Under the pieces are notes generated by a model, which worked only from the letters and a program-made list of their open reading frames with translations, was not told where the DNA came from and made no database searches. This document shows positions 4,347-62,300 of a stretch of DNA of 64,000 nt, piece by piece (the first letter of the stretch is position 1; each line of letters opens with the position of its first letter). The stretch comes from an uncultured Verrucomicrobiae bacterium (GTDB lineage: Bacteria; Verrucomicrobiota; Verrucomicrobiia; Chthoniobacterales; UBA10450). A program made the translations under genes and the position numbers. The stretch is taken from the NCBI GenBank assembly GCA_963726745.1, contig CAVSDR010000002.1, positions 128,001 to 192,000 of the forward strand. Reading direction: 5' to 3'.

Positions 4347-5020
4347 GAACTCGCCGGCTGTTTTTGGTTTCGTTAGGCAGTGCCGCCCTGGCGGCGATCG
4401 CCGTCCGCGCGGCGGACGATCTTCCGCAGGGTCAGGCCTTCGCGCGCTACGAGCCGATGATGAACCGCTCGCCTTTCGCGGTCGCCACCGCGGCCACCCC
4501 GCCGCCGCAGGCGCCGAACTTCGCCAAGGATCTCTACATCGCGAACGCGGCGAAATTGGCCGACGAAGCGGTGGTCACGCTTTCCTCAAACGTCGACAAG
4601 AGCCTCAAGGAATTCCTCAGCACCAAGGCCCCGAATAAATCCGGCTACAGCATTTCGAACATCGAGTGGTCCGATCGCGTCGGCGCGACCAAGGTCACGA
4701 TCACGAAAGACGGGCAGGTTGCGACCTTGTCCTTTAATGAAGCGCTGCTGGCGCAACCAGTCGGCAATCATGCCATGCCGCAGCAACCGCAAGCCCAGCC
4801 GCAAGTGCAAGCCGTGCCGCAAGGCATCCCCGCCCAGCAATTGCCCGCGCCCGGCCAGCAGATCCCGCAGCCGGCGCCGAACTTCAATCAAACCACCATC
4901 CGTCCCGCGCCGATTCCGACATTGCCCACGCCGCCACCGCGCGTCCGCGGCGTCATCCGTCGCAACGCCGACAACGTTCCCGCCACGCCCGATCCCCAAG
5001 GCTTAATGCAGGAGCAGTAA
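4343..5020 (+). CDS. Exported hypothetical protein with Gln/Pro-rich tail (possible GspC/PilP-like)
   Basis: Signal peptide, RSPF motif, low-complexity QP tail; ATG overlaps the previous stop. Confidence 0.55.
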   Translation: MRTRRLFLVSLGSAALAAIAVRAADDLPQGQAFARYEPMMNRSPFAVATAATPPPQAPNFAKDLYIANAAKLADEAVVTLSSNVDKSLKEFLSTKAPNKSGYSISNIEWSDRVGATKVTITKDGQVATLSFNEALLAQPVGNHAMPQQPQAQPQVQAVPQGIPAQQLPAPGQQIPQPAPNFNQTTIRPAPIPTLPTPPPRVRGVIRRNADNVPATPDPQGLMQEQ

Positions 5021-5046
5021 GCGCGCGGCGCCGAAGTGCTCCGCAC

Positions 5047-5084
5047 GTTATCTCGAGCGCAGCGAAGCGAAGTCGAGAGACCCC
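5047..5084. repeat. REP-like short palindromic element
   Basis: GTTA-TCTCGA-GCGCAGCGAAGCGAAG-TCGAGA-GACCCC hairpin between convergent genes. Confidence 0.45.
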
Positions 5085-5150
5085 GAGGCTGTAGGGCGAC
5101 TTCCGCAAGTTGCCGGCTAAATTAGCCAGCAAGATCACCGCGGAGAGACG

Positions 5151-5609
5151 CTAGTTGCCCCAGTTGTCGTCGGCCGTGTCCGGCTTCCGATCGGGCCCCG
5201 CGGAATAGAGATCGAACCCTGTCGGGTTCTTCCGGCCGGGGGAATAGTAGATGTAGTTATTTCCCCACGGGTCCTGCGGCAGTTCCTTGAAGAGCTGATA
5301 CCAGCGCGTCGGCTTCGGATCAGTTTCCGGTGGCGTCACCAGCGCCTGCAAGCCCTGCTCCGTTGTCGGCAGGAAACCGTTTACGCTTTCGTAAAGCTTC
5401 AGTTGAGTCGAGATCGATTGGACATCGGCGCGCACGCGCATGTCCTTGGCCACGCCGGTGGTGTTGCCCAATTTGGAAACGGCCACGCCCAGAATGATCA
5501 CGATGATGCCCACTACGAGCATGATCTCGAGGAGGGTAAAACCGGCCTGCCCGCGACGAGCGGAGCGCAGGGTTATTTCGGATCGAGAAGGTAGTCGGAT
5601 TTTTCCCAC
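5151..5609 (-). CDS. gspG: Major pseudopilin GspG
   Basis: AG|FTLLEIMLVV; PTTEQGLQALV, DPWGNNY and DLYSAGPD motifs; exact start uncertain. Confidence 0.95.
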   Translation of the reverse strand: MGKIRLPSRSEITLRSARRGQAGFTLLEIMLVVGIIVIILGVAVSKLGNTTGVAKDMRVRADVQSISTQLKLYESVNGFLPTTEQGLQALVTPPETDPKPTRWYQLFKELPQDPWGNNYIYYSPGRKNPTGFDLYSAGPDRKPDTADDNWGN

Positions 5610-6646: not shown

Positions 6647-7900
6647 TCAACGCGGACGCACCTGTAAACTGCTCGTCATTTCAAAGACGGCGCTGAGGAT
6701 GCTGAAGACAACGAAGCCGACCACGATCGCGATGATCACGATGATCACCGGGGGGATGAGCGCAGAGATGATTTTAACCGTGCGATCGAGCTCACGCTCG
6801 TAGACATCGGCGATCGCGCCCATGGTCTGCGCGAAGTGGCCGGTCTGCTCACCCACCGCCATCATGTCGGTGAAGAGTTCCGGGAAAAGCTCCTGCTGCG
6901 CGAGCGCCACCGAGAGATTCGCGCCGTCGATCACCGCCCTGCGCACGTCTGTTAGTTTCCGCTCGAGGTAACGGTTGCCGGCAATCTCGGTGACCAGGTC
7001 GAGCGCTTTCAAGAGCGGTACGCCGTTCTCCATCAAGGTCCCGAGCGTGCGCGAAAATTGCGCGTAGTAGCTGTGCTTGATCACCCGCCCATAGCCCGGC
7101 GCGGAGAGCCGCAGACGATCGAGCGCGACTCGCCCTTCCTCCGTGCGCGCGTAGGCGCGCACGCCGATAAACGTGCCCACGGCCACGATCGCCGCGATCC
7201 ACCAATAAGTCGTTAGGGCATGGTGAAAGGCCACCAGCAGGCGCGTGGGCAGCGGCAGCTCGCCGCCATTCTGCGACATGAACTGCGTCAGCTGCGGAAC
7301 CATGAAGGTGATGAAAATAGTCATCAAGATGGCGCCGGCGACTGCCAGAAAGGCGGGATAAATCAGCGCCTGTTGCACCCGGTCGCGCAGATTTTTTGCC
7401 TGCATCAAATGCTCCACCAAACGGCGCAAAATCTCCGAGAGCGCACCGCTCGCTTCGCCCGCGGCGATCAGGTTCACGTAGATCGCCGGGAAGATGCGCG
7501 GGAAATCGCGCAAGGCCTGAGAGAAGCTGCGGCCATCGATCAGCGCCTGGTGCAGGGCCGAGGTCATCTGCTGCACGCGCGGATGCTTCAGGCGCTTCCG
7601 CAAAACCGCAAGCCCTTCGTCCAAGGTCATACCTGCCTGGAGCAGATGCGCGAGTTGCTCGGTAAAGATGAGGAGCTGGGTGTGCGGAATCTTGAGGCTC
7701 TGCGTCGCCGCGGGCACCACCGCGCTGGCCGCCGGCGCGCTGGTTACGACTTGCGGCGCGCCGCCGATCGCCTCGATGCGCACCGGGATGTATTGCAGTT
7801 GCTCGATTTGCCGGATGGCCATGCCGCGATCCGCGCAATCGAGCGTCCCTTCCACCAGGCCGCCCTGCAGGTTGCGCGCGCGATAGGAAAACTGTGGCAT
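6647..7900 (-). CDS. gspF: T2SS inner membrane platform protein GspF/PilC
   Basis: Start MPQFSYRA at 7900; FTEQLAHLLQAG, AGEASGAL, ALIYP and VGEQTG motifs. Confidence 0.95.
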   Translation of the reverse strand: MPQFSYRARNLQGGLVEGTLDCADRGMAIRQIEQLQYIPVRIEAIGGAPQVVTSAPAASAVVPAATQSLKIPHTQLLIFTEQLAHLLQAGMTLDEGLAVLRKRLKHPRVQQMTSALHQALIDGRSFSQALRDFPRIFPAIYVNLIAAGEASGALSEILRRLVEHLMQAKNLRDRVQQALIYPAFLAVAGAILMTIFITFMVPQLTQFMSQNGGELPLPTRLLVAFHHALTTYWWIAAIVAVGTFIGVRAYARTEEGRVALDRLRLSAPGYGRVIKHSYYAQFSRTLGTLMENGVPLLKALDLVTEIAGNRYLERKLTDVRRAVIDGANLSVALAQQELFPELFTDMMAVGEQTGHFAQTMGAIADVYERELDRTVKIISALIPPVIIVIIAIVVGFVVFSILSAVFEMTSSLQVRPR

Positions 7901-7946
7901 GAACGCGCCCACCCTAGCACAGGCGCCCGCCGCGTGCAGGGCCGCT

Positions 7947-10162
7947 CTAGGGCGCGGGCACTTCTGGCGCGAGGAGGAAACGCAGCTCCCGCTCGTATTC
8001 CGGCTTCGCCTTGGCGGCGGCTTCCGCAAGCGTCTTCGCGGCCTCGGTTTGCCCGGTGGATTGCGCGTAGACCGCAGCCAGCCATTGCCGCTCCGCCGCG
8101 TCGGGCGCGCCCGGGCGAATGAAGGCGTTCGACATCGCGAGCAAGGTCGCGGGCGCGAGGCGATCCCATTTGAACGGCGCCCCGCCATAGGGCGCAATGC
8201 GCAGGGTAATTTCCGCGCCGTTCGCGCCAACCACGCCTTGATAAGTCGTCGCGCCCACCGTCACCGGAGTCGCGATAGCGCCCGCCTTGCAGATCGGCGA
8301 TCAGGCGCGCCTTCCACTCGGTCAGCCAGGTCGGGCGGCGGCGGGCAAACTCCGCGGCGGCTTCCTTTTCATGCGCAGCGGTTTCCTCTTTTGCAAGGCG
8401 CTCGGCGCTGGTCGCGAGGCGCTGCGCTTCATCGTTGAGGAAGGCGCCGAGCGCCGCGTCGTCGCGCGCGCGCTCCTGCAGCGCGCGCAATTTTTCCAGG
8501 GCCGACTGCGCCACGGCCGCGGTCGTGAGGCGCTGCGGAATGGCCTTGGCCTCGGCATAGACAGCGTGATCCGCGAGGAACTTGCGCGCAAGCGGTTGAT
8601 AGTCGGCGATCCACTTTTGCTCGTTAGGCGGCGTCGCTCTCGGCGAATTTCCGCAGGTAAGCCGCGGCCTCGTCGAACTCGCGCAGCTGCCAGTCTTTCA
8701 CCCCGTAAAGGAAGAGCGCGAAACTGTTCCAGCCCGTGGCCTCGGCCTCGGCCGCGCCGCGCACCGGGCCGCTGCCGGCGAGGGCGCGCGCGGTCTCGGT
8801 GAAGAAGCGCGGGAGATCGGACTCGGCCGGCTTCGCAGAGAAGGCGGCGCTCCGCTGGAGCTGCTCGAAGCTGTCGCGCGCGGGCGCGATTTTAGCCTGC
8901 AACATCTGGGCGAGCCCGAGGTGGAGCCGGGCCCAGTTTTGCAACGGTTGTCGGTCGCCCGCTTCCTTGATTAGCTTCGTGAAGCTGGCGGTCGCGGCTT
9001 CCAATTTGCCGTCTAATAATTGCCGGCGCGCTTCCTCGTAGCGCTGCTGGAGCGCGGTGCTGTTGTCGGCCCCCGGCAGCGGGCGTGCCCGGCGCCACCG
9101 CGGCGGACGGGGCCGCCGGCTTGCGATGAAGCCAATAATAGCCGCCGCACCCGCGAGGAGCGCCAGACTAACGAGACCAATGACCATCGGCTTGAGCCAC
9201 GAGCGTTCCGCCGGCGCGCTCCCATCCGCCGGGAGCGCGCGCCAGGCGCGGCGCAATTCATCGACCAGGTGCGCGTAGGAAGTAAAGCGGTTCGCCGGGT
9301 CCGGGCGGAGCATGCGGTCGATCACGAGCGCGGTTTCCTTCGACACTTCCGGCGCGAGCGAGCGCAGGCTGGGCGGCGCGCTTTTTAGCCGGCGCAATTC
9401 CGCGGCCGAGGTGGTCTCCGCTTCCATCGGCGGGCGGCCGGCGAGCGCGTGAAAGAGGGTCGCGCCGAGGCTGTAGATATCGCTGCGAAAATCCTCCGGC
9501 GCATTGTCCAGGCGCTCAGGTGCGACATAGTAGGGCGTGCCCCAAATCTCCTGCTGCGCTTCGGCGTGTTGTTCCGCCGCGCCGGCGAGACCGAAATCGC
9601 CGATCTTCGCGGTCCGCGCATCGGAGAAGAGGATGTTGGCCGGTTTAACGTCGCGATGAATCAAACCCTTTTCATGCGCCGCCTCCAGCCCGCGCGCGAC
9701 CTGGATGCCGGTCTCGAGCACCTGCCGCTCGGGCACGCGAGCGTGCTGCGCCATCAAGTCGTCGAGGCTCCCGTGATCGACCAATTCCATCACCAGGTAG
9801 ATCTGCCCGTGCGCCGTGCCCGAGGAGTAAAGCTGGACGACGTTGGGATGATTGATCGCCGCAGTCACGCGCGCTTCCTGTTCCAAACGCGCCGCCTCCG
9901 CGGGATCGGCGCTCAAATCTTTACGCAGCAACTTGAGGGCAACGAAGCGGCCCAGCCGCGTGTCCTGCGCCTTGTAAACCGAGCCCATCCCGCCCACGCC
10001 GAGGGTTTCGGTGAGCTTGAAATTATCGAAGGCCGTCTCGACGCGGAATTTTTCCCCGCACTGCGGGCAGGCGATCTTCGCCAGCGGTTCCGCTTCGGAG
10101 ACATCGACCGCAGTGCCGCACGCGGGACAGGTTTGCGGCGGCACTTGGAGAGCGTCGGGCAT
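7947..10162 (-). CDS. Membrane Ser/Thr protein kinase with N-terminal zinc ribbon and helical C-terminal region (frameshifts near 8635 and 8275)
   Basis: CPAC/CPQC; GVGGMGSV, VALK, HRDVKPAN, DFG, APE; TM helix; past the apparent stop at 8624 another frame reads PPNEQKWIADYQPLARKF into ORFs 7744..8514 and 7947..8264. Confidence 0.85.
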
Positions 10163-10217
10163 TGTGATCGCGTATCATTCGCGCGATTCCGCGAAAAGAC
10201 CAGCACGGGCCGCAAGC

Positions 10218-11121
10218 ATGATTGAATTACTCGTTCCCCGGGAACGCGCCGGCCTGCGGCTGGATCGCTTCCTCGCGCTGGAATTGCCGGATTTTTCGCG
10301 CTCGCGCCTGCAGGCGTTGATCGAGGGAGGATTCGTTAGGCTAAACGCCGCGGTGCCGCGCACGCGCGAAATCGTGAAGACGGGCGATGCGGTGACGCTG
10401 GAAGTGCCGGCGCCGGAAAAGATCGAGGCCGAGGCGGAAGAGATCGCGCTGCAAATTCTTTTCGAGGACGACGATCTCCTGGTGCTGGACAAGCCCGCGG
10501 GGATGGTGGTGCATCCGGGCGCGGGCAACCGCGAGCACACGCTGGTGAACGCGCTCCTGCACCATTGCACCGCGCTTTCCGGCATTGGCGGAAAGGAGCG
10601 GCCGGGGATCGTCCATCGTCTCGACAAGGAAACCAGCGGCTGCCTGGTGGTGGCGAAGAACGACCAGGCGCACCGCGAACTTTCGCGGCAATTTGCCGCG
10701 CGCACGATGACGAAGACTTATCTCGCGCTGGTCGCGGGGCGACTCGAAAAAAGCCAGCGGCACGATCGACGCGCCGATTGCGCGGCACCCGATCCATCGG
10801 CAGCGAATGGCGATCGCGCGCTCGACCCGTGGGCGCTCCGCGCGGACCGATTACAAAGTGGTGCGCGCGGGCACCAGCGCGAGCCTGGTGGAGTGTGCGC
10901 TGCACAGCGGACGGACGCACCAGATCCGGGTGCACTTGCATCATCTTGGGCATCCGGTTTTAGGCGACAAGCTCTACGGCGCGCGCTTGGCGAAAGCCTA
11001 TCCACGCCAAATGCTGCACGCTTGGCGGCTGGGGTTCACGCACCCGACAACGGGTGAAGCGATGCAGTTCGAAGCGCCGCTGCCGGCGGACTTCAACGAC
11101 GCGCTCGAGCTTCTGGACTAG
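10218..11121 (+). CDS. rluD: RluA/RluD family 23S rRNA pseudouridine synthase (frameshift at A-run near 10750)
   Basis: S4 domain RLDRFLA...SRSRLQ; DKPAGMVVHP, RPGIVHRLDKETSG; GRTHQIRVH and LHA in the second frame. Confidence 0.9.
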
Positions 11122-11125
11122 GCGC

Positions 11126-11162
11126 AAAAAAGCCGCGGCGCTCACGAGGAACGCCGCGGCTT
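11126..11162 (-). terminator. Intrinsic terminator between convergent genes
   Basis: AAGCCGCGGCG / CGCCGCGGCTT stem with an A6 run on its left (U-tract on the minus strand). Confidence 0.75.
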
Positions 11163-11178
11163 GAAGTTGCTGTCTAAA

Positions 11179-12048
11179 TTAGGCGGCCTGCCGGCGGCGC
11201 AGGAAGATCGCCCCGCCGATCAAGCTCACCGCGAGCAGCGCGTAGGTCGAAGGCTCCGGGACTACGGCGATGTCGCGCAGCGCTGCGCCGTTGAGCGTGC
11301 TCACGGGCGTAAGCACCGCGGTGGTGAGGTTAAGCGTGTAGAGCGAATTGCCGCTCGAGAAGTAGGCGGTGTTCGTGCTGCCGCCACCGTGGTGAGCACG
11401 TCGAGACCGGTGATGCCATTGAGCGCATCAAACATCACTCCACCGAGCATGAGCGTGCCGACGGTCGTGAGCGTGGAGAACTGCGGCGCGGTCGATGTGG
11501 AGGATGAGCGCGTTCAGGGTGGCGTCGATGCTGTAAAGCGCGGTCGAAGCGGGCCCGGCGATGTTGTTCGTGTAAGCCGCGGCGACCAGGTTCGGGGTCG
11601 CGCCTTGATTCGGATCGCCCGCGGCGAAGGTGAAGGCTCCATCCGAGGTCACCACGCCAGTTCCGGGCGTGAGGCGGAAGTTATTCGTGCCGGCGAAAGA
11701 CGCGCAGGCGGTTAGCCGGCGGGATTGAAGTCAATCACCGTCGCTCCGGGGACGGCGTTGTTAACGTCGAGCGTGGCCGCGCCCGTGGAACTCAAAGTGT
11801 AGAGCGATCCGCTCGAACCCATGCCGTAGAGGAGGCCGTTGCTGGAGGAGAAGTAGTCGATCCCGATCAGGCTATCGCCAGCATTCAGTCCCGTGATCGG
11901 GACGGTCGTAGGAACGGAAGCCAGGGGAGCTATAGAAGGAGAGGGAGGTCCCGGCAGCGCCGAGACCCACGAGTGACTGCGCCTGCGCGAAGCCGGCCAG
12001 GCCGACCAAGAGGAGAGCGGAGGTAAGGCTAACGAGTAGTTTTTTCAT
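11179..12048 (-). CDS. DUF4394-like surface protein with PEP-CTERM sorting signal (several frameshifts)
   Basis: Signal peptide MKKLLVSLTSALLLVGLAGFAQA; IDFNP and AAAYTNN motifs; C-terminus read by hand: VVPEPSTYALLAVSLIGGAIFLRRRQAA*. Confidence 0.8.
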
Positions 12049-12127
12049 AGGGATTGAGTTCTGGGTATCGCGCGGTTTTTCGCCACTGGTTCGAGCTTGG
12101 ATGCACGAAAATCGCCAGTCGAGAAAA

Positions 12128-13465: not shown

Positions 13466-13469
13466 CGCT

Positions 13470-16008: not shown

Positions 16009-16061
16009 AAGCGAGTTTCCTAGTCCACGCGCCCGGGCGGCGCAAAGGATTTACCGCGCGG

Positions 16062-16643
16062 CTAGAGCTTCGGGCCGATGATCTGGCGCAGCTTCATCAT
16101 CCCGCGGCGGATACGAGCCTTGACCGTGCCGAGCGGCTGCCGGAGTTGCTGCGCGATTTCCTGCTGCGTCAGGCCGCCAAAGAACGCCAGCTCAATCGCC
16201 TTGCGCTGGTCGTCGGAAAGTTGGATGACCGCGCTCCGGACCATTGCCTGCGTCTCGTGCGCGCTGGCTTCATCGGAGGAATCGATCTCGGTCATGCGGT
16301 CCCAGATTTTCGCCTCTTCTTCGATCTCGTCGTGTAAACGGCGACGGCGCTGGAGACGGCGGAGGCGATCGATCGCTTTATTGCGAGTCAAAGTCATCGC
16401 CCACGTAAGCGGTTTACCGCGGCGGACATCGTAGACGGAAGCTTTCTCCCAGATCTGGACAAAAGCTTCCTGCACCACCTCCTCGGCATCGCGGGCATTA
16501 TTCAGCACGCGGAATGCAGTGGCGAGGAGCACGCCGGAATAGCGGCGATAAAGCTCGTTCAAGCTGCTGTGATCTCCGATGGCGGCCCGGCGGAAGAGTT
16601 CGGTGTCTTGGAGAGGAGAGGAATCGAGGGTGGTGGTAGACAT
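16062..16643 (-). CDS. ECF sigma-70 factor (SigK/RpoE-like)
   Basis: DAEEVVQEAF, RNKAIDRLR, LAFFGGLTQQEIA and PLGTVKARIRRG. Confidence 0.93.
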   Translation of the reverse strand: MSTTTLDSSPLQDTELFRRAAIGDHSSLNELYRRYSGVLLATAFRVLNNARDAEEVVQEAFVQIWEKASVYDVRRGKPLTWAMTLTRNKAIDRLRRLQRRRRLHDEIEEEAKIWDRMTEIDSSDEASAHETQAMVRSAVIQLSDDQRKAIELAFFGGLTQQEIAQQLRQPLGTVKARIRRGMMKLRQIIGPKL

Positions 16644-16719
16644 ACATTAACCTTTCGGTAGACAAAAGGTAGACGGATGCCTGACGACGTAAAGTTTTTT
16701 CGAAATCTTTTTCCAGCTT

Positions 16720-18006: not shown

Positions 18007-18065
18007 GGTTTCGGCAGAAAGGTGCGCGCTTCTCGAATTCCCGTCCAACGATCAGGCTGCGCGCG

Positions 18066-18094
18066 TTGACAGTACCGCGGCGTGCTCCTAATCT
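18066..18094 (+). promoter_or_regulatory. Sigma70-type promoter of tRNA-Cys
   Basis: TTGACA (18066-71), 17-bp spacer, TAATCT (18089-94), then a GC-rich discriminator before the tRNA. Confidence 0.7.
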
Positions 18095-53291: not shown

Positions 53292-53298
53292 CGGTTCC

Positions 53299-55098
53299 GT
53301 GTATGGTGCAGCTCCGATGAATGCGCCGGATTCCCTCACTGCAAACGGCTCGCCGCGGCGCTTTTGCCTGCTGCTGGTGAAGCCGGCGCATTACGACGAC
53401 GACGGCTACGTGATCCAGTGGCTGCGTTCCGCGATCCCTTCGAACTCGCTCGCGGCGCTCTACGGCCTGGCGCGCGATTGCGCCGAACGCAAAACCCTCG
53501 GGCCGGATGTGACCCTCGAGATTCACGCCTTTGACGAGACGAACACGCGCATCCGCCCGGAGCGTCTCGCGCGCATGATTGAGGAGGCGGGCGCCGGGAT
53601 GGTGATGCTCGTCGGCGTGCAGTCGAATCAATTTCCGCGCGCGCTCGACCTGGCCAAGCCGCTCCTCGAGCGCGGCGTGCAGGTGGGCATCGGCGGGTTC
53701 CATGTCTCCGGCGTGCTCAGCATGCTCGACGGGAACGATCCCGATCTCCATCGCGCCAAGGCCATGGGCGTATCGCTCTTTGCCGGCGAAGCCGAAGGCC
53801 GCCTCGAGCAGGTGCTGAGCGACGCCTACGCGCGGAAGCTGAAGCCGCTGTATAATTTCATGGCCGACCTTCCGGGAATCGAAGGCGCGCCGATTCCGCT
53901 GATCAGCGCCACGCGCGCGGCCCGCACGCTCGGGCGCGTGACCAGCTTCGACGCCGGGCGCGGTTGCCCGTTCCAGTGCTCCTTTTGCACGATCATCAAT
54001 GTGCAGGGCCGGAAATCGCGACGCCGTTCGCCGGACGACATCGAGCAGATCATCCGGGAAAATTTTGCGCAGGGACTGCGCAGTTTTTTCATCACCGACG
54101 ACAACTTCGCGCGTAATCAAGACTGGGAAAAAATCCTCGATCGACTGATCCAGATGCGGAAGGGCGAGCGGATGAATTTCTCCTTCATCATCCAGGTCGA
54201 CACGCTTTGTCACAAGATCCCAAAGTTCATCAAGAAGTGTAAAAGCGCAGGCGTGAAGCGGGTCTTCATCGGGCTGGAAAACATCAACCCCGAGAGCCTT
54301 GCGGGCGCGAAGAAGCGGCAGAATAAAATCACCGAATACCGCAAGATGCTGCAGGCCTGGAAAGAGGCGCGCATCATCACCTACGCGGGATACATCACCG
54401 GCTTCCCGAACGACACCGTGGAGTCGATCCGGCACGATATCGAGATCATCAAGAAGGAGCTGCCGGTCGATTTGCTGGAGTTCTTCTTCCTCACGCCGCT
54501 GCCGGGCTCGGCCGATCACCAAGGGCTGCACCGCGCCGGCTCGCCGATGGATGCGGACCTGAACCGCTACGACTTGAATCACGCCTGTGCGCCGCACCCG
54601 AAGATGTCGCGCGCCGAATGGGAGCAGGCTTACCACCTCGCGTGGGACACGTATTACACGTGGGACCATGTGGAGACGATCCTGCGCCGCTCGGCCGCGA
54701 AGCAGACGAACATCAGCAACCTGATCGCGCTGATCGCGTGGTTCAAAGGCTCGCTCAAGATCGAGAAGATCCATCCGCTCGAGAGCGGCGTTTTCCGGAT
54801 GAAATTCCGGCGCGACCGGCGGCCGGGTTTTCCGATTCTCCCGCGCTGGAAGTTTTACCCGGCTTACCTCGCGGAAACAGCCAGCAAGCTCACGCAATGG
54901 GGCCTGCTGCTCCTGCGCCTGCGCCGCATCCAGCTGCGGGTGAAGAATGATCCGCGGAAGCTCGAGTATATGGACCTGGCGCTGACCCCGGTGAACGAGC
55001 ACGACACCGAGGAGCTGGAGATGTTTCACAATCCCGCGGCGGAAGCGTTCGTCGCGCGGGAGCAGCGGCGGCAGGCGCCGGCCGCGGTCGGCGTCTAG
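53299..55098 (+). CDS. B12-binding-type radical SAM protein
   Basis: GGFHVS, GEAE, RGCPFQCSFC, ITDDNF, FIGLEN, LTPLPGS. Confidence 0.88.
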   Translation: MYGAAPMNAPDSLTANGSPRRFCLLLVKPAHYDDDGYVIQWLRSAIPSNSLAALYGLARDCAERKTLGPDVTLEIHAFDETNTRIRPERLARMIEEAGAGMVMLVGVQSNQFPRALDLAKPLLERGVQVGIGGFHVSGVLSMLDGNDPDLHRAKAMGVSLFAGEAEGRLEQVLSDAYARKLKPLYNFMADLPGIEGAPIPLISATRAARTLGRVTSFDAGRGCPFQCSFCTIINVQGRKSRRRSPDDIEQIIRENFAQGLRSFFITDDNFARNQDWEKILDRLIQMRKGERMNFSFIIQVDTLCHKIPKFIKKCKSAGVKRVFIGLENINPESLAGAKKRQNKITEYRKMLQAWKEARIITYAGYITGFPNDTVESIRHDIEIIKKELPVDLLEFFFLTPLPGSADHQGLHRAGSPMDADLNRYDLNHACAPHPKMSRAEWEQAYHLAWDTYYTWDHVETILRRSAAKQTNISNLIALIAWFKGSLKIEKIHPLESGVFRMKFRRDRRPGFPILPRWKFYPAYLAETASKLTQWGLLLLRLRRIQLRVKNDPRKLEYMDLALTPVNEHDTEELEMFHNPAAEAFVAREQRRQAPAAVGV

Positions 55099-55152
55099 GC
55101 TCGACCACTCGGCATCGAGGGCGGTAATCTCCTGTTCGGGGAGGCGACCGCA

Positions 55153-56226
55153 ATGAACCCAGCAGACCTGACGATTAATGAAGAAAAGCTGAACGCTTTC
55201 ATGGGCCGCGCGCTCAACGACATGGGCGGCGCAATCAACACCAGCCTGATCCTGATCGGTGACCGGCTGGGCCTTTACAAAGCGATGGCGGGCGCCGGCC
55301 CGCTGACCGCCGCAGAAGTTGCCGGCAAAACCGGCACGAATGAGCGCTACGTGCGCGAATGGCTCTCCGCGCAGGCGGCCGGCGGTTATGTGGAATACGA
55401 CGCGGCGGCGGAGAAATTTACCCTTCCGGATGAACAGGCGATGGCCCTCGCAGTCGACAACAGCCCGGCGTTTATTCCGGGCGCTTATCAAATCGTCGCC
55501 TCGACGGTGATCGACGAGCCGAAGCTGCGCGCGGCTTTCCAAAGCGGCGAGGGCGTTGGCTGGCATGAGCACAACTGCAATCTCTTCGAGGGAACGGAGC
55601 GCTTTTTCCGGCCGGGCTACTCCGCGCGTTTAGTAAGCGAGTGGCTCCCGGCGCTCGAGGGCGTGCAGGCGAAACTCGAGCGCGGCGCGCGCGTGGCCGA
55701 TGTCGGCTGCGGCTACGGCGTGTCGACTATTTTGATGGCGCAGGCTTACCCAAACTCGAAGTTTTTCGGCTTCGATTATCATGAGCCGTCGATTGCATGG
55801 GCGCGCCGCTCGGCGGAAAAAGCCGGTGTGAGCGATCGGGTGACCTTCGAGGTCGCAGCGTCGAAAACTTTTCCCGGCCAAGGCTACGACCTGGTCGCTT
55901 TCTTCGATTGCCTGCACGACATGGGCGATCCGGTAGGCGCGGCCGCGCACGTGCGGCAAACGCTCAAGCCGGACGGCACCTGGATGATCGTGGAACCGTT
56001 TGCGAACGATCGGCTGGAAGACAATCTCAACCCGGTCGGCCGCGTCTTTTACTCGGCCTCGACCTTGATCTGCACGCCGGCCTCGCGGGCGCAGGAAGTC
56101 GGGCTGGCGCTGGGCGCGCAGGCGGGCGAGAAACGGCTGCGCGCAGTCGTGACCGAAGGCGGCTTCACCCGCTTCCGCCGCGCCGCAGAAACGCCGTTCA
56201 ACCTTATTTTGGAAGCTCGACCATGA
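55153..56226 (+). CDS. Class I SAM methyltransferase with N-terminal winged helix (Rv2258c-like)
   Basis: GDRLGLY, ERYVREWL, VADVGCGYG, FFDCLHDMGDP, TPFN. Confidence 0.88.
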   Translation: MNPADLTINEEKLNAFMGRALNDMGGAINTSLILIGDRLGLYKAMAGAGPLTAAEVAGKTGTNERYVREWLSAQAAGGYVEYDAAAEKFTLPDEQAMALAVDNSPAFIPGAYQIVASTVIDEPKLRAAFQSGEGVGWHEHNCNLFEGTERFFRPGYSARLVSEWLPALEGVQAKLERGARVADVGCGYGVSTILMAQAYPNSKFFGFDYHEPSIAWARRSAEKAGVSDRVTFEVAASKTFPGQGYDLVAFFDCLHDMGDPVGAAAHVRQTLKPDGTWMIVEPFANDRLEDNLNPVGRVFYSASTLICTPASRAQEVGLALGAQAGEKRLRAVVTEGGFTRFRRAAETPFNLILEARP

Positions 56227-57341
56227 ACCCACCCGATCACACCATCTCCCGGCGTGCCTTTGCCCGTTTGTTAGGCGCAGGCGCGGCCCTGGCCGTCACT
56301 GGCCCGAAATTTTCTTTGGCGCGGGAGGCAACGCCGGCCGCGGCTAGTGGCGTGGTGCGCCTTAGCTCGAACGAGAATCCGTATGGTCCGTCGCCGCGGG
56401 CGCTCGAGGCGATGCGCGAGGCCTTTGCCATCGCCAACCGTTATCCCTTCGCGGATGAAGAGAAATTAGCCGACGCCTTGGCAAAACTTTACGCCGTGGA
56501 GCGCGCGCAGGTGTTGCTGGGCGATGGCTCGGGCGAGATTTTGAAGCTGGCGGCGGTCGCCTTTACCGGACCGAATGATCGCCCGTTAGTCGCCGCTGAT
56601 CCGACTTTCGAGGCGATCCTGAAACATGCCGCCGTGAGCGGCGCGGAGGTGGTAAAGATTCCCCTAACGAGCGGTTACGCGCACGACCTGGAGAAAATGT
56701 CCTCCGCGGCGAAGAGCGGCCTGGTTTATCTCTGTAATCCAAACAATCCGACTGCGAGCATTACGCCGAAGGCGGCCGTGCGGCAGTTCCTCGCCAAGTT
56801 GCCGGCAACTACCACCGTGCTGGTGGACGAAGCCTACGCGCACTACGCGGAAAGCCCGGAGTTCGAGAGCGTCGTGCCGCTGATTGCGGATCATCCCAAC
56901 CTGATCGTCACGCGGACATTTTCGAAAATCTATGGAATGGCGGGATTGCGTTGCGGTTTTGCCCTGGGGCAGAAGGAGATGATCGGAAAAATGGCGCGGC
57001 ACCAGCCCTCAAACAGCGTCAACTGCATGGCCCTGGCGGCGGCGGTCGCAAGCCTGGCGGATGGCGCGCAGGTGACCGAGGGAAAGCGCCGCAACACGGA
57101 AGTGCGGCGGTTCGTGAGCGCTGAGCTGGCGGGTCTGGGCTACGAGCTGATTCCATCGGAAGCGAACTTCATCATGTTCGACCTCAAGCGGCCGGTGGTG
57201 CCGGTGATCGCGGCGTTAAAAGAACGCAAGGTCCAGGTAGGCCGCCTTTTCCCGACGCTGCCCAATCACCTGCGCTTGACCATTGGCACGCGTCCGGAGA
57301 TGGAGGCTTTCCTGGCCGCCTTCCGCGTGGTGATGGCTTGA
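56223..57341 (+). CDS. HisC-like PLP aminotransferase with Tat-like signal
   Basis: SRRAFARLLG; LSSNENPYGP, CNPNNPT, VDEAY, RTFSKIYGMAGLR. Confidence 0.88.
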   Translation: MNPPDHTISRRAFARLLGAGAALAVTGPKFSLAREATPAAASGVVRLSSNENPYGPSPRALEAMREAFAIANRYPFADEEKLADALAKLYAVERAQVLLGDGSGEILKLAAVAFTGPNDRPLVAADPTFEAILKHAAVSGAEVVKIPLTSGYAHDLEKMSSAAKSGLVYLCNPNNPTASITPKAAVRQFLAKLPATTTVLVDEAYAHYAESPEFESVVPLIADHPNLIVTRTFSKIYGMAGLRCGFALGQKEMIGKMARHQPSNSVNCMALAAAVASLADGAQVTEGKRRNTEVRRFVSAELAGLGYELIPSEANFIMFDLKRPVVPVIAALKERKVQVGRLFPTLPNHLRLTIGTRPEMEAFLAAFRVVMA

Positions 57342-57373
57342 TCTTTGGCCGGCGGGGCCCAAGAATCGGCGGC

Positions 57374-58051
57374 ATGAAAACCCCCGCGACACATCTTGTC
57401 TGCGCGGCCTTGTGCGCCGCCTGGTTGACCGCTCCTGCCTCTGCGCAGGAGAAAACGAAATCTCCCGCAGTGGCGGCTTCGCCGGCGGCCGCCGCCTCGG
57501 CGACGGGTGCGCCCGACGATGCCGAGATGATGAAGCAAATGATGGAGCTCTCGAAATTAAACGAGAACCACAAACTGCTCGCGCAAATGGCCGGCGACTG
57601 GACCTACACGATGAAGATGTGGATGGCGCCGGATGCTCCGCCGACGGAATCGAAAGGCACTGCGACGCGCAAGGCGATCATGGACGGCCGCTACTTTACG
57701 GCCCACTTCGACGGCAAAGCGATGATGCCGGGGGCCGATGGAAAACCACAGGAGTGGGACTTTCACGGCATGGCGATCGAAGGCTACGACAATGTGCACC
57801 AGAAATTCGTCTCCACCTGGATCGACAACATGTCGACTGGCATTTTCATGTCGCAAGGGACTTACGATCCGGCGACCAAAACTTTCACCTACCAGTCGGA
57901 GATGGAAATGCTTCCAGGGATGAAGACCAAAGTGCGCGAGACCGTGAAGCTGGTCGATGCCGACCACCACACCTTTGAGTTCTTCGAGGATCGCGAGGGG
58001 AATGGGAAGGAAATGAAGACGATGGAGATGAACTACACGCGCAAGAAGTAG
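57374..58051 (+). CDS. Exported DUF1579-like protein
   Basis: Signal peptide; HKLL...GDW, GYDN...FVSTWIDNMSTG, YTR. Confidence 0.75.
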   Translation: MKTPATHLVCAALCAAWLTAPASAQEKTKSPAVAASPAAAASATGAPDDAEMMKQMMELSKLNENHKLLAQMAGDWTYTMKMWMAPDAPPTESKGTATRKAIMDGRYFTAHFDGKAMMPGADGKPQEWDFHGMAIEGYDNVHQKFVSTWIDNMSTGIFMSQGTYDPATKTFTYQSEMEMLPGMKTKVRETVKLVDADHHTFEFFEDREGNGKEMKTMEMNYTRKK

Positions 58052-58134
58052 CGGCGACCGGGAAAGCTTGGAGCGAATTGAAGCGAGCGCGAAGAAGTCG
58101 CGAGCTTTTTCGCAAATCTCTGTTACAGTGCGCG

Positions 58135-58500
58135 ATGCCCAAACCTACTGGCGCGTCGTTCACGCGTCGCGCTCCCGACAATATCACTGAAGAGTTGGTC
58201 GCCGTTCTTTCCTCGAAATCCTCTTTCGAATTCAAGGCGCTTTTCGAAATCATTTTTTCCAATCTGCGGGAGCGGAATGCAGCCAGTGGGGGCGAGGAAA
58301 TGCTGCGCCTGCGCGCCTATGAGAAACTGCAAAGTCTCGTTAGCCAGGGAGCGGTCAACCGCACGGTCAACGGCGCGGTGAAGAAATACAAAGGCGTGAG
58401 TGCCCGTCTTTCCGTCCTCGCGGCCGAGCAGAAAGTGCTGCGTGCGGAGTGGGATCAGCGCGCGCTGGCCAAGGCTTCGGCCGCAGCCGCGGCCAAGTAA
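58135..58500 (+). CDS. Hypothetical protein, possibly winged-helix
   Basis: Basic 121-aa ORF containing GGEEMLRLRAYEKLQSLV. Confidence 0.65.
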   Translation: MPKPTGASFTRRAPDNITEELVAVLSSKSSFEFKALFEIIFSNLRERNAASGGEEMLRLRAYEKLQSLVSQGAVNRTVNGAVKKYKGVSARLSVLAAEQKVLRAEWDQRALAKASAAAAAK

Positions 58501-58518
58501 CGCCCGCAGTCAGGAGCG

Positions 58519-59718
58519 GTGAAAACGCTCTTCCTCACGAACGAGTATCCGCCAAACGTCTACGGCGGGGCTGGCGTCCACGTCGACTATTTGTCGCGCG
58601 AACTCGCGCAGCTGATGTCGGTGGAAGTGCGCGCATTTGGGACGCAGGATGCGCAGAGGGGGAACCTGCGTGTGCGCGGCTTTTCGGTCGATCCGGCGCG
58701 GTATCGCTGCCCTGAGCAACTGCGTTCGGTCTTTGGCGCCATCGAGCGGTGCACGGACTTCAATGCCGCCGGGATCGATGCCGATGTGGTGCATTGCCAC
58801 ACTTGGTACAGCCATTTTGGCGGCATCCTGGCGAAGCTGAATTATGGACTTCCGCTCGTCATCACGGTGCATTCGCTCGAGCCGCTGCGGCCATGGAAGC
58901 GCGAGCAACTTGGCGGCGGTTACGATTTTTCCGTGTGGCTGGAAAAGACCGCGCTCGAGATGGCCGATGCGGTCATCGCGGTCTCCGGCGAGACGAAGCG
59001 TGACCTCGAACGCTTGTTCTCCATCCGCCCGGAGCGTCTCCATGTGATCCATAACGGGATCGACCTGGACGAGTATCGTCCCGTGAAAACAACCGACGCG
59101 CTCACGCGTTACGGGATTGATCCGGCGCGGCCGTTCGTGCTCTTTGTCGGCCGGATTACCCGGCAAAAAGGAATTGTCCACCTGGTGCGCGCGATTGCCT
59201 CGATGGATCCCGGCTTCCAGGTGGTGCTCTGCGCCGGCGCGCCGGACACGCCGGCGATTGCCGCCGAGATGGACGCAGCAGTGGCGGAGGCGAGCGCGAA
59301 AAGAGACGGCGTCATCTGGATTCGCGAGATGGTCGACAAGCCGACCGTGATCGAGCTTTACTCGCAGGCGGCGGTCTTCTGCTGTCCCTCGGTCTACGAA
59401 CCGTTCGGCATCATCAATCTCGAGGCGATGGCCTGCGAGACCGCGGTGGTGGCAAGCGCGATCGGCGGCATTCCCGAAGTGGTGGTCGATGGCGAGACCG
59501 GCTTCCTGGTTCCGCTGGAACTAAAGGAGGGCACGTTCGAACCGCGCGACCCGGAGCGTTTCGCGCGCGACCTGGCGGCGCGAATCAACCAGTTGATGTC
59601 GAATCCGGCGCAGCGCGCAGAGTTCGGCCGGGCCGGCCGGAAACGGGCGGTGGAGCACTTCAGCTGGCGCGCGATCGCGGCCGAGACGGCCAAACTTTAC
59701 GCAACTTTAACTCGTTAG
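58519..59718 (+). CDS. glgA: GT4 glycogen synthase / maltose-1-phosphate synthase (GlgA/GlgM type)
   Basis: EYPPNVYGGAGVHV, HTWY, HSLEPLRPWKREQLGGGY, YEPFGIINLEAMAC. Confidence 0.9.
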   Translation: MKTLFLTNEYPPNVYGGAGVHVDYLSRELAQLMSVEVRAFGTQDAQRGNLRVRGFSVDPARYRCPEQLRSVFGAIERCTDFNAAGIDADVVHCHTWYSHFGGILAKLNYGLPLVITVHSLEPLRPWKREQLGGGYDFSVWLEKTALEMADAVIAVSGETKRDLERLFSIRPERLHVIHNGIDLDEYRPVKTTDALTRYGIDPARPFVLFVGRITRQKGIVHLVRAIASMDPGFQVVLCAGAPDTPAIAAEMDAAVAEASAKRDGVIWIREMVDKPTVIELYSQAAVFCCPSVYEPFGIINLEAMACETAVVASAIGGIPEVVVDGETGFLVPLELKEGTFEPRDPERFARDLAARINQLMSNPAQRAEFGRAGRKRAVEHFSWRAIAAETAKLYATLTR

Positions 59719-59773
59719 GCGGCGACTTCGGCGCTGAAAAGTGTAGGGTGCTGACGCCGGAACGGCCCACCTC

Positions 59774-60877
59774 ATGTTTGTCGATCGAATCAAAGTTTTC
59801 GCCCAGGCGGGCAATGGCGGGCGCGGCTGCGTCAGTTTTCGGCGGGAGAAATTCGTTCCGCGCGGCGGTCCCGATGGCGGGGACGGGGGGCAGGGGGGCG
59901 ACATTATCCTGCAGGCCGACGTGCACACGGATAACCTGGCGAACCTTTTCTACGAGCCGATTATTAAGGCCAAGCCCGGCGGCCATGGCATGGGCAAGAA
60001 GATGCACGGCCGCGGCGCGCCCTCGAAGATCGTGAAAGTGCCGGTGGGCACCGTGGTTTACCGCGCGCCTGCGCCGCCAGCCCCGCTGGAAGAAGTGCGG
60101 GACGAGAACGTGACTTTCGTTCCGGAAGTGGAGGCACCTTTCGAGCCGGAGCAGCTCGCCGACCTGACCGATGATGGCCAGCAATTTGTCCTCTGCGCCG
60201 GCGGTCGTGGCGGCAAGGGGAACGTGCATTTCAAGAGTTCGCGTAACCGCGCACCGATCCAATACACCGAGGGCGAGGAAGGCGAGCAGGGGCATTTCCT
60301 GCTCGAACTGCGCACGATCGCGGATGCCGCACTGGTGGGTTATCCGAACGCCGGCAAATCGACACTGCTCGGCAAACTTTCCGCGGCTCATCCGAAGGTG
60401 GCCGCCTATCCTTTCACCACCTTGCGGCCGAGCGTGGGCGTGGTGGAACTCGACGACTATCGCCGCGCGACCGTGGCCGACATTCCCGGCTTGATCGAGG
60501 GCGCGCATCGCAACGTGGGCTTGGGGCACGATTTTCTGCGCCATATCACGCGCTGCCGTTACCTGCTTTTCGTCCTCGATATTGCGGGAAGCGAAGGGCG
60601 GCATCCGATCGAGGATCTGCAGAGCCTTCGCCGCGAGATCGATCTTTACGATGAGCGCCTCTCGCAGCGGCCGTGGGCGATCTTGGCGAACAAGATCGAC
60701 TTGCCCGGAAGCGAGGAAAATCTCGAGCAACTGCGGCAGCGTTTTCCGGCGGTGAAAGTGCTGTCTATTTCTGCACGTGAAGAGCGGGGCATCGCCGATT
60801 TAAAAGAACACCTGGCCCAGTGGCTGACGACCGCCGAAGCCTCGGAAGCGGCGACGGGTTTGGCCACCGCTGGGTAA
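59774..60877 (+). CDS. obg: GTPase Obg/CgtA
   Basis: FVD, GGPDGGDGG, GYPNAGKST, YPFTT, DIPG, NKID. Confidence 0.96.
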   Translation: MFVDRIKVFAQAGNGGRGCVSFRREKFVPRGGPDGGDGGQGGDIILQADVHTDNLANLFYEPIIKAKPGGHGMGKKMHGRGAPSKIVKVPVGTVVYRAPAPPAPLEEVRDENVTFVPEVEAPFEPEQLADLTDDGQQFVLCAGGRGGKGNVHFKSSRNRAPIQYTEGEEGEQGHFLLELRTIADAALVGYPNAGKSTLLGKLSAAHPKVAAYPFTTLRPSVGVVELDDYRRATVADIPGLIEGAHRNVGLGHDFLRHITRCRYLLFVLDIAGSEGRHPIEDLQSLRREIDLYDERLSQRPWAILANKIDLPGSEENLEQLRQRFPAVKVLSISAREERGIADLKEHLAQWLTTAEASEAATGLATAG

Positions 60878-60881
60878 ATCG

Positions 60882-62138
60882 ATGAGGGATTCGGGACACA
60901 ACGGCGATCATTCCGGCGAGCGGGTCGTGGCCAGCTACTGCACCACTTTCCTCAAGCGCGAGATGCTGCACATCTATCGCCAGGTCACGGCGCTGGAGAG
61001 CTACCGCACTTTTGTGATGACGAAGTCGCTCCAGAACACGGAGCTTTTCCCTTTTAGCGACATCGAGCTAATCCCGAAACCACGGCGCAACCCGGTCCGG
61101 CACGGCTGGCTCAAGTTCATCCGGCGGAAGCCGCCGATCGTCTACCGCGGTGAATACCAAATGCTCACCCGCCTGCTTGAACGCCGGGGAGCGGACTTGA
61201 TGCACATTTATTTCGGGCACACCGGGGTGCATCTCTTGCCGTTCATTGAGCGCTGGGACAAGCCTTGCGTGGTTTCCTTTCACGGCGCGGACGTCGCGCG
61301 CAAGGCGGACATCCGCGATTACGCGCTGAAATTAAAAACGCTCTGTCACGCGGTCCCGCTGGTGCTGGCGCGGTGCCAGTCGTTAGCCGACCGTTTGATC
61401 GAGCTCGGCTGCCCGCCGGAACGCCTGCGCATTAGCCGCACAGGCGTCCCGCTGGCGCAATTCCCGCATGTCCGCCGGGAGGCGCCGGCCGATGGGCGCT
61501 GGCGGCTTCTGCAAGCTTGCCGGCTAATTCCCAAGAAAGGCGTCGCGACCACGCTTTGCGCCTTTGCGATTTTCCAGAAAGAATTCCCGCAGGCGGAATT
61601 GATCATCGCCGGGAAAGGCCCGTTGCAGGCGCACCTCGAAGAGCTGGCCGAGGAACTCGGGATCGCAGCGAAGGTGCAATTTCCCGGGTTTTTGTCGCAG
61701 AGCGAATTGCGCGAGCTTTACGCGAGCGCACATCTGTTCATTCACCCGAGCGAAACCCCGCCCGATCAAAATCAGGAAGGCATTCCGAACTCCGTCCTCG
61801 AGGCGATGGCTACGGGGCTGCCGGTGCTGGGCACGCGGCATGGCGGCATCCCGGAGGCAGTCGAGCATGGGCGGGCCGGCTTTCTCGTGGAAGAGCGCGA
61901 TTTCGAGGCGCTGGCGCACGCGATGAAAGGGATTGCGCGCTCTGCCACTGGCTTCCGGGAGATGGGTTTGCTCGGGAGTGAATTCGTTCATGCGCACTTC
62001 GAGCAGCGCGCGCAGATCCGGCAACTCGAGAGCTACTATGATGAGGCGGTGACGCTCGCAGCGGAGGCGCGTGGCCATTCTGCCCGGTCCGCAACGGTCC
62101 CGCCGGCGGCGTTTCCGGCGCACGCCTCGGCAAAGTAA
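60882..62138 (+). CDS. GT4 glycosyltransferase (WcaL-like)
   Basis: SFHGAD, RLIPKKG, EGIPNSVLEAMATGLPV, HGGIPE. Confidence 0.88.
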   Translation: MRDSGHNGDHSGERVVASYCTTFLKREMLHIYRQVTALESYRTFVMTKSLQNTELFPFSDIELIPKPRRNPVRHGWLKFIRRKPPIVYRGEYQMLTRLLERRGADLMHIYFGHTGVHLLPFIERWDKPCVVSFHGADVARKADIRDYALKLKTLCHAVPLVLARCQSLADRLIELGCPPERLRISRTGVPLAQFPHVRREAPADGRWRLLQACRLIPKKGVATTLCAFAIFQKEFPQAELIIAGKGPLQAHLEELAEELGIAAKVQFPGFLSQSELRELYASAHLFIHPSETPPDQNQEGIPNSVLEAMATGLPVLGTRHGGIPEAVEHGRAGFLVEERDFEALAHAMKGIARSATGFREMGLLGSEFVHAHFEQRAQIRQLESYYDEAVTLAAEARGHSARSATVPPAAFPAHASAK

Positions 62139-62300
62139 GCCGCGGCTAACGACCAGTTCTGTTTGTCGCAAATAGTCTCTTGTCATTGCGGCAAAACACG
62201 CTTTGGTAACGCGCTTGCCGCCCCTGCGGGGTGCGCGATCTTCGCGATCGCTGCGCTTCGGGAATTGAATCGGGGCCGCGGCATTTTACGCCACCAACCG

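Follow-up and report, generated by a model that had tools for sequence, protein, structure and literature searches.

The 64,000-nucleotide stretch of DNA analysed here (the window) comprises positions 128001-192000 of contig C2 of an uncultured Verrucomicrobiae bacterium, G000, the genome studied, which has 3,406,779 bases in 7 contigs (C1-C7) at 62-64% GC; other G numbers denote comparison genomes and L numbers loci. Along it lie genes for an RluD-like pseudouridine synthase, a glycosyltransferase, a glucoamylase, an ABC transporter with HlyD, XdhC, MobA, an M3 peptidase, NuoA, NuoC, NuoH, NuoL, NuoM and glutamate dehydrogenase, and these unrelated genes are hosts to a short asymmetric nine-base word, TCGTTAGGC, which matches the window 27 times (18 on the plus and 9 on the minus strand). 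The copies are listed below with the open reading frame (ORF) in which they lie; for the stretch 30001-50000, which holds 13 words (5 of them aligned in no relative), the state of the orthologous site in relatives is added.

4370..4378, plus strand, word copy
8621..8629, plus strand, word copy
10333..10341, plus strand, in the RluD-like pseudouridine synthase ORF
12572..12580, minus strand, word copy
15025..15033, minus strand, in a family-2 glycosyltransferase ORF
19898..19906, minus strand, in the glucoamylase-like ORF
20772..20780, minus strand, in the glucoamylase-like ORF
23499..23507, plus strand, at an ORF boundary
24238..24246, plus strand, at the ABC transporter and HlyD ORFs
25689..25697, plus strand, in the HlyD-family ORF
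30061..30069, plus strand, in the XdhC-like ORF
31068..31076, plus strand, in the MobA-like ORF
33019..33027, minus strand, in the M3 peptidase ORF; the orthologous site lacks the word in 5/5 relatives, with 3 substitutions in each
34733..34741, plus strand, in a phosphodiesterase-family ORF
36539..36547, minus strand, word copy
37481..37489, plus strand, in a 4Fe-4S (NuoI-like) ORF; retained in G024, two substitutions in G013
39218..39226, plus strand, at the boundary of the NuoC-like ORF
39872..39880, plus strand, word copy; of 4 aligned relatives, retained in G013 only
40803..40811, minus strand, in the NuoA ORF; retained in 4/5 relatives
42681..42689, minus strand, in the spacer adjoining gdhA
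43298..43306, minus strand, in the glutamate dehydrogenase ORF; retained in G024; in 4 other relatives the flanks are conserved and there is no indel, but 6/9 bases and two residues have changed
46148..46156, plus strand, in the NuoH ORF; retained in 2/5 relatives
47981..47989, plus strand, in the NuoL ORF; retained in 4/5 relatives
50098..50106, plus strand, in the NuoM-like ORF
51345..51353, plus strand, word copy
51924..51932, minus strand, word copy
59712..59720, plus strand, at an ORF end
16 other TCGTTAG not ending in GC, within 7210..62152, with 7-mer starts at 7210+, 9168-, 12029-, 18827+, 19514-, 22090+, 37114+, 38048+, 48995+, 49258+, 49724-, 52980+, 56664-, 58337+, 61380+ and 62146-

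A preliminary description of the window, made by eye from its letters, had counted 43 copies of TCGTTAG (27 plus, 16 minus), and its tallies were reproduced exactly. The two bases that follow are GC in 27 copies, CC in 8, GG in 3, TC in 3, CG in 1 and AC in 1; the base at -1 is C in 24, G in 11, T in 8 and never A; and the base at -2 is mostly A or T (A 23, T 10, G 9, C 1). The description had also placed the 9-mer far above chance, and indeed 100 dinucleotide-preserving shuffles of the window yield a mean of 0.33 matches and at most 2, against the 27 observed, and for TCGTTAG a mean of 2.64 and at most 7, against 43.

The enrichment extends to the whole genome. G000 carries 1,312 copies of TCGTTAGGC (631 plus, 681 minus), or 0.39 per kb overall and 0.32-0.53 per kb across all contigs, making it the second most abundant 9-mer, while CTCGTTAGGC is the commonest 10-mer (820 copies). 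Markov models of orders 0-3 predict 24.3, 15.9, 15.9 and 19.7 copies, a 55- to 80-fold enrichment; the higher expectations at orders 4 and 5 (84 and 702) arise because those models are dominated by the word itself. Within the 2,624 ORFs called by codon-usage score, which cover 86.5% of the genome, 969 copies were found, compared with 20.35 ± 4.2 (largest 28) in 20 synonymous-codon shuffles that keep the proteins and 7.95 ± 2.7 (largest 13) in 20 codon-order shuffles. The word is thus hyper-abundant beyond both composition and codon models, and the two outcomes that the preliminary description had named as fatal to its proposal, namely a loss of enrichment under codon-preserving shuffles and confinement to one contig or assembly, did not materialize. 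A within-gene dicodon-preserving shuffle and a maximal-order Markov model were uninformative because the rare sub-words exist almost solely inside TCGTTAGGC. The copies have no flanks in common apart from W at -5, A (not C) at -2 and C (not A) at -1, with no information beyond -5, so that the extended form reads W-N-N-A-C-TCGTTAGGC. Among single-base variants, those at position 8 (C 240, T 123, A 80), that at position 9 (G 134) and TTGTTAGGC (121) are frequent, and others are rare.

The word acts at the level of DNA and not of protein. Copies in ORFs occupy all four stop-free frames (Ser-Leu-Gly 428, Val-Arg 104, Leu-Thr 218, Pro-Asn 215), and 347 further copies lie outside ORF bodies. Proteins bear a cost: 14.0% of all TTA and 12.3% of all CTA codons of G000, both rare, lie within the word, the tripeptide SLG occurs 752 times in the proteome versus 493 expected from residue frequencies and is encoded by the word 431 times versus 4.2 expected from codon usage, and PN[ED] occurs 381 times versus 183 expected. 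In addition, the word supplies 159 stop codons, comprising 90 of 835 TAA and 69 of 933 TAG, which is about a tenth of the former and 7% of the latter. Stop usage across the ORF set (TAG 933, TGA 855, TAA 835) is itself of note, with TAG and TAA more frequent than is usual at 64% GC. The word consequently skews annotation statistics such as stop-codon choice, rare-codon counts and tripeptide frequencies.

Copies lie in both orientations without replichore polarity, which in its strict form would, according to the preliminary description, have pointed to Chi or KOPS. In 20-kb bins sorted by GC-skew sign, the counts are 211 plus and 212 minus where skew is positive and 407 plus and 457 minus where it is negative (Spearman 0.10, p 0.20), and strands are equally balanced on contigs with almost uniformly negative skew (C6, 1.03 Mb, 198 plus and 210 minus; C4, 74 plus and 80 minus). 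The power of this comparison is moderate. Spacing is more even than expected, with 69 gaps below 300 bp versus 144 expected and 693 gaps of 300-2,000 bp versus 562 expected. Direct pairs make up about half of neighbouring pairs in every distance class, direct and inverted pairs behaving alike, and 5 of the 11 neighbouring pairs less than 100 bp apart are inverted. The longest stretches free of the word, C7:60030-95400 (35.4 kb, GC 0.593) and C6:413728-437792 (24.1 kb, GC 0.600), are both lower in GC than the genome (0.637) and both consist of surface-polysaccharide clusters with glycosyltransferases, Wzz, Wzy, ABC-2 transporters, DegT and exosortase. Judged by these two largest word-free stretches, the ones annotated, the word is depleted in recently acquired, foreign-looking DNA, and its presence can help to tell native from imported DNA in these genomes.

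Among relatives, the word follows lineage. All 24 genomes of the same genus (g1) carry 138-2,412 copies, a 17-fold range (22 of 22 when G001 and G008 are left aside), while counts of 1-19, without enrichment, were found in 16 genomes that represent 15 other families of the order. A survey of the phylum (401 genomes at least 80% complete) found strong enrichment in family f1 only, represented by G000 and by G335 of sister genus g18 (1,803 copies); one genus outside f1 has 61-134 copies in 6-Mb genomes, and the remaining genomes have 24 or fewer. Low-count members of genus g1 still hold the word about 30-fold above a Markov-3 model, yet at only 0.06-0.08 per kb, and no other dispersed word was found in them. 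At aligned orthologous sites within window positions 30001-50000, the word is retained at 5/6 in G024, 3/8 in G013, 3/7 in G018, 1/6 in G005 and 1/6 in G002; DNA identity around these sites is 71-85%, and the differences are substitutions that change residues, with no indels. In the otherwise word-poor G028, four copies lie within 2.4 kb at C2:640583-642996 (L209 8583-10996) in a gene-like and not an attC-like context, a segment that may be an import from a word-rich lineage.

The sister genus g17 has a word of its own. Its genome G087 contains just 60 copies of TCGTTAGGC, compared with a control count of 79, and in the 100 kb surveyed (L035-L039, C1:1-100000) another asymmetric word, TTGTCGATCTTG, is dispersed over both strands at about 0.6 per kb; the core, GTCGATCT, occurs 59 times in that 100 kb (31 plus, 28 minus) without shared flanks. 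A likeness of this core to an attC L'-spacer (8/10 bases) is weak, about p 0.04 by estimate, may be due to chance and is not relied on here. Samples of five other families contained no dispersed word, one apparent word being a tandem repeat; apparent words in G002 (GGAAGTA at several places in L040, C1) and in G027 (at a contig end, L066 60-250) likewise proved to be 7-base tandem repeats. The word is thus specific to a lineage, as the preliminary description had proposed, with a different word in a sister genus and with one departure that the description missed: three genomes of another phylum, Gemmatimonadota, carry the same word genome-wide.

This second phylum emerged when 185,579 species genomes were scanned for pairs of TCGTTAGGC lying 20-50 bases apart, which gave at least 120 loci, 80 of them returned with flanks. 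Among these 80, 58, with 0.15-2.04 copies per kb, are labelled as Chthoniobacterales, Verrucomicrobiae, Verrucomicrobiota or Spartobacteria, 6 are labelled as Gemmatimonadota, and 16 are scattered over taxa with little beyond the defining pair or tandem repeats. Copy numbers in selected genomes are as follows.

G436, Gemmatimonadaceae, 6.1 Mb: TCGTTAGGC 3,882, control 80
G437, Gemmatimonadota, 7.5 Mb: TCGTTAGGC 1,300, control 52
G438, Gemmatimonadaceae, 3.1 Mb: TCGTTAGGC 623, control 29
G440, Chthoniobacterales, 3.2 Mb: TCGTTAGGC 4,336, control 78, at 1.36 per kb the densest genome seen
G439, Isosphaeraceae, 4.5 Mb: TCGTTAGGC 8, control 17

Proteins of G000 and a sample from G436 have a median identity of 35.7%, and G436 is therefore not a mislabelled relative. 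The word is patchy within its group also: of 60 relatives of G436, 20 hold at least 98 copies (G460 has 1,996), and most others hold 0-19 (G459 has 1). Recent exchange of DNA between the phyla was considered and set aside, as 110 kb of Gemmatimonadota loci compared with G000 gave no match above 80% identity; the single match near 80% spans 98 bases, and longer matches lie at 66-74%.

One further carrier is viral. L268, a 12.1-kb contig from IMG/VR (GC 0.608), has 9 copies of TCGTTAGGC (4 plus, 5 minus), a density like that of the hosts, and encodes a phage structural module with terminase gpA, a lambda-type portal, an S49 prohead protease and a GP7 major capsid protein; at the protein level, nothing in it matched G000 at E 1e-20. 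Across three scans of viral sequences for paired words, 50 distinct loci came up; 49 of these hold the defining pair or short tandem repeats only and L268 alone is word-rich, a weak hint that viruses of these hosts carry the word.

A second fact missed by the preliminary description is that the word is identical to the 3' (R') end of an integron attC site. TCGTTAGGC contains GTTAGGC, which fits the attC core GTTRRRY, and its complement contains GCCTAAC, which fits the inverse core RYYYAAC, in line with the consensus RYYYAAC ... GTTRRRY given in excerpted text of PMC3053210. The attC sites of this order end in CTCGTTAGGC, the commonest 10-mer of G000, so that the word matches their last 10-11 bases. 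We estimate the chance that a 9-mer contains GTTRRRY at about 0.006, and with 10-11 bases matching in this order, coincidence seems unlikely. Genomes poor in the word have their few copies in one-strand clusters with 300-1,000 bp between them, mostly in attC arrays; in the arrays of G489, G477 and G028, the unit runs from GCCTAAC through an imperfect palindrome of about 95-100 bases to TC-GTTAGGC, and in G028 an integron integrase gene adjoins one such site. G087 has 34 pattern matches to the same attC family in several arrays, yet is without genome-wide TCGTTAGGC. Next to the integrases of G436 and G460, the attC sites share no more than CGTTAG with the word.

G000 itself retains two cassette arrays, both outside the window. 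At C6:736573-744893 (L224 8573-16893), an integrase-less cassette array (CALIN) holds 12 attC sites on the minus strand, all ending in CTCGTTAG followed by GC (5), AT (5), AC (1) or GT (1), with no integrase remnant beside it. At C4:150100-151067, on the edge of a 15.5-kb word-free stretch, two attC sites on the plus strand enclose one cassette ORF. A frameshifted relic of IntI, about 35% identical to residues 23-159 of the IntI of G013, lies at C2:58460-58980, some 69 kb upstream of the window, and adjoins neither array. No integron integrase of G000 exceeds the cut-off (best TIGR02249 score 80 bits versus 265), so that an active integrase that could use attG sites was not found in this genome.

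The word copies in the window, and more than 98% of those in the genome, are not attC sites, which consist of an inverse core and a core around an imperfect palindrome of 57-141 bp in same-strand arrays, as seen in the separate C6 and C4 arrays. Of 1,521 GTTAGGC in G000, only 32 are preceded by an inverse core at a distance of 40-150 bases, and a fold in which the R box is paired forms at 19 of them, several being merely two inverted words within genes. The AT ending used by some of the array sites occurs 7 times genome-wide, compared with 1,312 for GC. A tendency of the flanks to follow each lineage's attC arm was sought and not seen.

We consider as the best fit, and a tentative one, that TCGTTAGGC is a signal of self DNA like the DNA uptake sequence (DUS) of Neisseriaceae and the uptake signal sequence (USS) of Pasteurellaceae, spread by biased uptake coupled to transformation and tuned to, or seeded by, the attC end. 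A directional process would impose the word on the whole core genome, reading double-stranded DNA in either orientation. In the likeliest process, the one known for the DUS and the USS, a step of natural transformation (most probably the one at which the uptake machinery binds incoming DNA) would favour fragments with the word, such that alleles gaining it would be over-transmitted among conspecifics through homologous recombination and would accumulate where the cost is bearable. Both the place of uptake as the biased step and the nature of the receptor are inferred. The specificity of the reader may have been seeded by, or tuned to, the abundant conserved attC repeat; perhaps the reader latched onto the commonest conserved repeat of an ancestral genome, or perhaps it serves the import of cassettes. 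The last option fits with transformation feeding the chromosomal integron of Vibrio cholerae with cassettes, as described in excerpted text of PMC12614218 and PMC8191803. Tuning to the attC end would explain why the same word occurs in two unrelated integron-bearing soil phyla. A fuller version, in which specificity is tuned to the attC end, transformation preferentially imports cassettes along with conspecific DNA, the genome-wide word is a by-product and the phyla converged through the universal integron core, strikes us as attractive but unlikely.

The ranking rests on likeness. In enrichment, independence of strand, frame and replichore, protein cost, even spacing, absence from islands, restriction to lineages and a different word in a sister genus, the anatomy observed here matches known uptake sequences feature by feature, and transformation-coupled drive is therefore ranked first. 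The Neisseriaceae DUS, read by the minor pilin ComP, is likewise short (9-12 bases) and asymmetric, and occurs thousands of times over the two strands, between genes as well as within them in any frame. It too is lineage-specific with sister words and rare in imported islands; it differs in that it belongs to another phylum, is another word and is paired as terminator inverted repeats, a pairing that TCGTTAGGC lacks. The Pasteurellaceae USS also has a 9-base core, weakly informative A/T-rich flanks, spacing more even than chance and an effect on peptide composition, and its density (about 1 per kb) is of the same order as that of TCGTTAGGC (0.39 per kb, up to 1.36 in G440). Unlike the USS, TCGTTAGGC recurs in a second phylum, coincides with the recombination site of a mobile genetic system and is costly in a GC-rich host because TTA, CTA and AGG codons are needed. 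Excerpted text of PMC7811141 reports 1,465 copies of the 9-bp USS core and 1,892 of the 10-bp DUS, spaced about 1 kb apart and flanked by AT-rich sequence, and describes sequence-specific DNA uptake as documented in two proteobacterial families only.

Likenesses to other systems are more partial. With the integron attC R' box and attG, TCGTTAGGC has GTTAGGC/GCCTAAC in common, but, unlike attC, it mostly lacks an inverse-core partner or hairpin, is not in arrays, occurs in a genome whose integrase gene is a relic and is fixed over 9-10 bases. Chi, the FtsK-orienting polar sequences (KOPS) and the architecture-imparting sequences (AIMS) are also over-represented 8-mers of the core genome, but they are polarised with replication and TCGTTAGGC is not. 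The cyanobacterial HIP1 is also hyper-abundant in genes and also has no reader assigned to it, but this octamer is palindromic and TCGTTAGGC is asymmetric.

The machinery for uptake is present in G000, in the form of ComEC, DprA, a 103-residue ComEA-like ORF (a weak match, 29.3 bits versus a cut-off of 27), three secretins, at least 7 PilT-family ATPases and 13 prepilin-type genes. The window itself includes, at 99-5681, a type II secretion-like pseudopilin cluster with GspK-like (1376-2566, plus strand) and GspG-like (5154-5681, minus strand) genes and prepilin-type N-termini at 204-269 (plus) and 5478-5549 (minus), and a PilT-family gene lies shortly upstream of the window at C2:124778-125779.

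Several observations weigh against an uptake signal. ComEC, DprA, secretins and PilT are equally present in the word-poor G027 and G087, and ComEC occurs in 59 of 61 relatives of G436 whatever their word count; competence genes, present everywhere we looked, were thus rejected as a discriminator of word-rich genomes, and the machinery is therefore permissive and not diagnostic. ComP_DUS (Pfam PF16732) exceeded its cut-off in none of 5 genomes, the best match in G000 (21.9 bits) covering a generic pilin N-terminus only. A pilin common to both phyla was also sought as a receptor and rejected: of the 13 prepilin-type genes each in G000 and G436, 8 and 12 were extracted and compared, and they gave a single full-length pair, GspG-like, at 40% identity. 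In addition, the lineage is uncultured and known from metagenome-assembled genomes alone, uptake being read from sequence; the polarity test has limited power on short contigs because GC skew is weak (about ±0.03), though its result is clear on C6 and C4; a pure uptake drive would account for the word-rich phage contig only in the case of a resident phage that recombines with its host; and identity with the integron core could point to a recombinase-type reader and not to an uptake receptor. The proposal of the preliminary description, that the word is an uptake signal, has come through those of its own refuting tests that sequence could answer (enrichment, genome-wide spread and lack of polarity all hold) and therefore remains the best fit, with no support added by the distribution of competence genes or by a ComP-type receptor.

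Other readers of the word can be envisaged. A sequence-specific chromosomal system of another kind might keep the word by selection, be it a nuclease of defence or repair that reads it as a self-mark, a protein of the nucleoid or of segregation, or a methyltransferase coupled to biased repair. Its patchiness in two phyla, within one genus and among the relatives of G436, resembles that of mobile defence and modification systems, a phage at host-like density is what would be expected if the word protects DNA, and the word is missing from foreign-looking islands. We regard such a system as doubtful, if the most serious of the competing readers, as 9-10 contiguous specified bases at a density of 0.4-1.4 per kb in genes are known from no modification or nucleoid site, restriction targets are usually avoided and not enriched, no candidate gene was identified, and chance would have to account for the match to the attC end. 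That match is what a recombinase would account for: an integron-integrase-type tyrosine recombinase (IntI or a relative) may read the word as a double-stranded R-box or attG-like site, the word being spread by selection of landing sites or by conversion during abortive exchange. The word does contain both core motifs and equal the last attC bases, TIGR02249 scores above its cut-off in G436 and, within the order, in 21 of 41 genomes, both word-bearing phyla carry integrons, and G000 keeps its arrays and IntI relic. The presence of an integrase, however, does not track word density across genomes, and the integrase was rejected as reader on that ground. Of the five densest genomes of the genus (G024, G001, G013, G010 and G000), only G013 has IntI over the cut-off; G440, the densest of all, has no integron integrase at E 1e-30; the copies in G335 and G460 are interrupted; and low-density G005, G016, G019 and G021 and most word-free families carry one. 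Integrases moreover require only GNT/GWT, extendable to GTTRRRY (excerpted text of PMC10127599; bioRxiv 10.1101/2022.09.11.507474), whereas the genomic word is specific over 9-10 bases, and excerpted text of PMC10127599 describes their off-target activity as deleterious. Finally, the AT ending, found at 5/12 sites of the C6 array, is rare elsewhere, close pairs are avoided in any orientation, and orthologues differ by substitutions without cassette footprints. We therefore hold a recombinase to be an improbable reader.

A Chi-like hotspot, which would halt a RecBCD- or AddAB-type nuclease on self DNA, appears very improbable. Chi sites are similar to TCGTTAGGC in length and density, and enrichment in the core genome, absence from islands and presence in a phage contig would all suit such a role. 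To our knowledge, however, all described Chi sites are co-oriented with replication, and no co-orientation was found here, either by skew sign or on C6 and C4, so that the word does not behave as Chi or KOPS do; its enrichment and distortion of proteins also exceed what is described for Chi. Least probable by far is that the copies are pieces of mobile elements or attC sites, such as cassette remnants or miniature inverted-repeat transposable elements, or an artefact of composition. True attC sites with this ending do exist in G000 (12 on C6 and the small C4 array), but only 32 of the 1,521 GTTAGGC have an inverse-core partner and 19 fold, flanks are uninformative beyond -5, copies sit in conserved housekeeping genes without indels relative to orthologues, and shuffles and Markov orders 0-3 fall short at least 50-fold; origin as remnants is refuted for more than 98% of copies.

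If these are uptake words, Verrucomicrobiota and Gemmatimonadota, common and mostly uncultured soil bacteria, would be the third and fourth cases, and the tagging of self DNA would be a general strategy, with the word offering a sequence handle on gene flow in soil metagenomes. If uptake is indeed tuned to attC, it would couple two systems of horizontal transfer so far linked only experimentally in Vibrio. It is tempting to ask, given the match to the integron core, whether transformation and cassette capture have a recognition signal in common. The preliminary description knew of no such word for this lineage, and our literature searches, which covered main texts, agree in finding no description of one. 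Among the matches listed, the literal TCGTTAGGC or its complement appears in papers as primers or oligonucleotides only; searches on DNA uptake sequences with Verrucomicrobia returned nothing relevant, and none of the papers listed on competence, uptake, transformation or integrons names Udaeobacter.

Among the longer k-mers of G000, the commonest include those of a (GCCAAC)n hexamer tandem repeat, whose 12- to 14-mers reach about 140 copies, and those of a (CCGACTC)n heptamer repeat.

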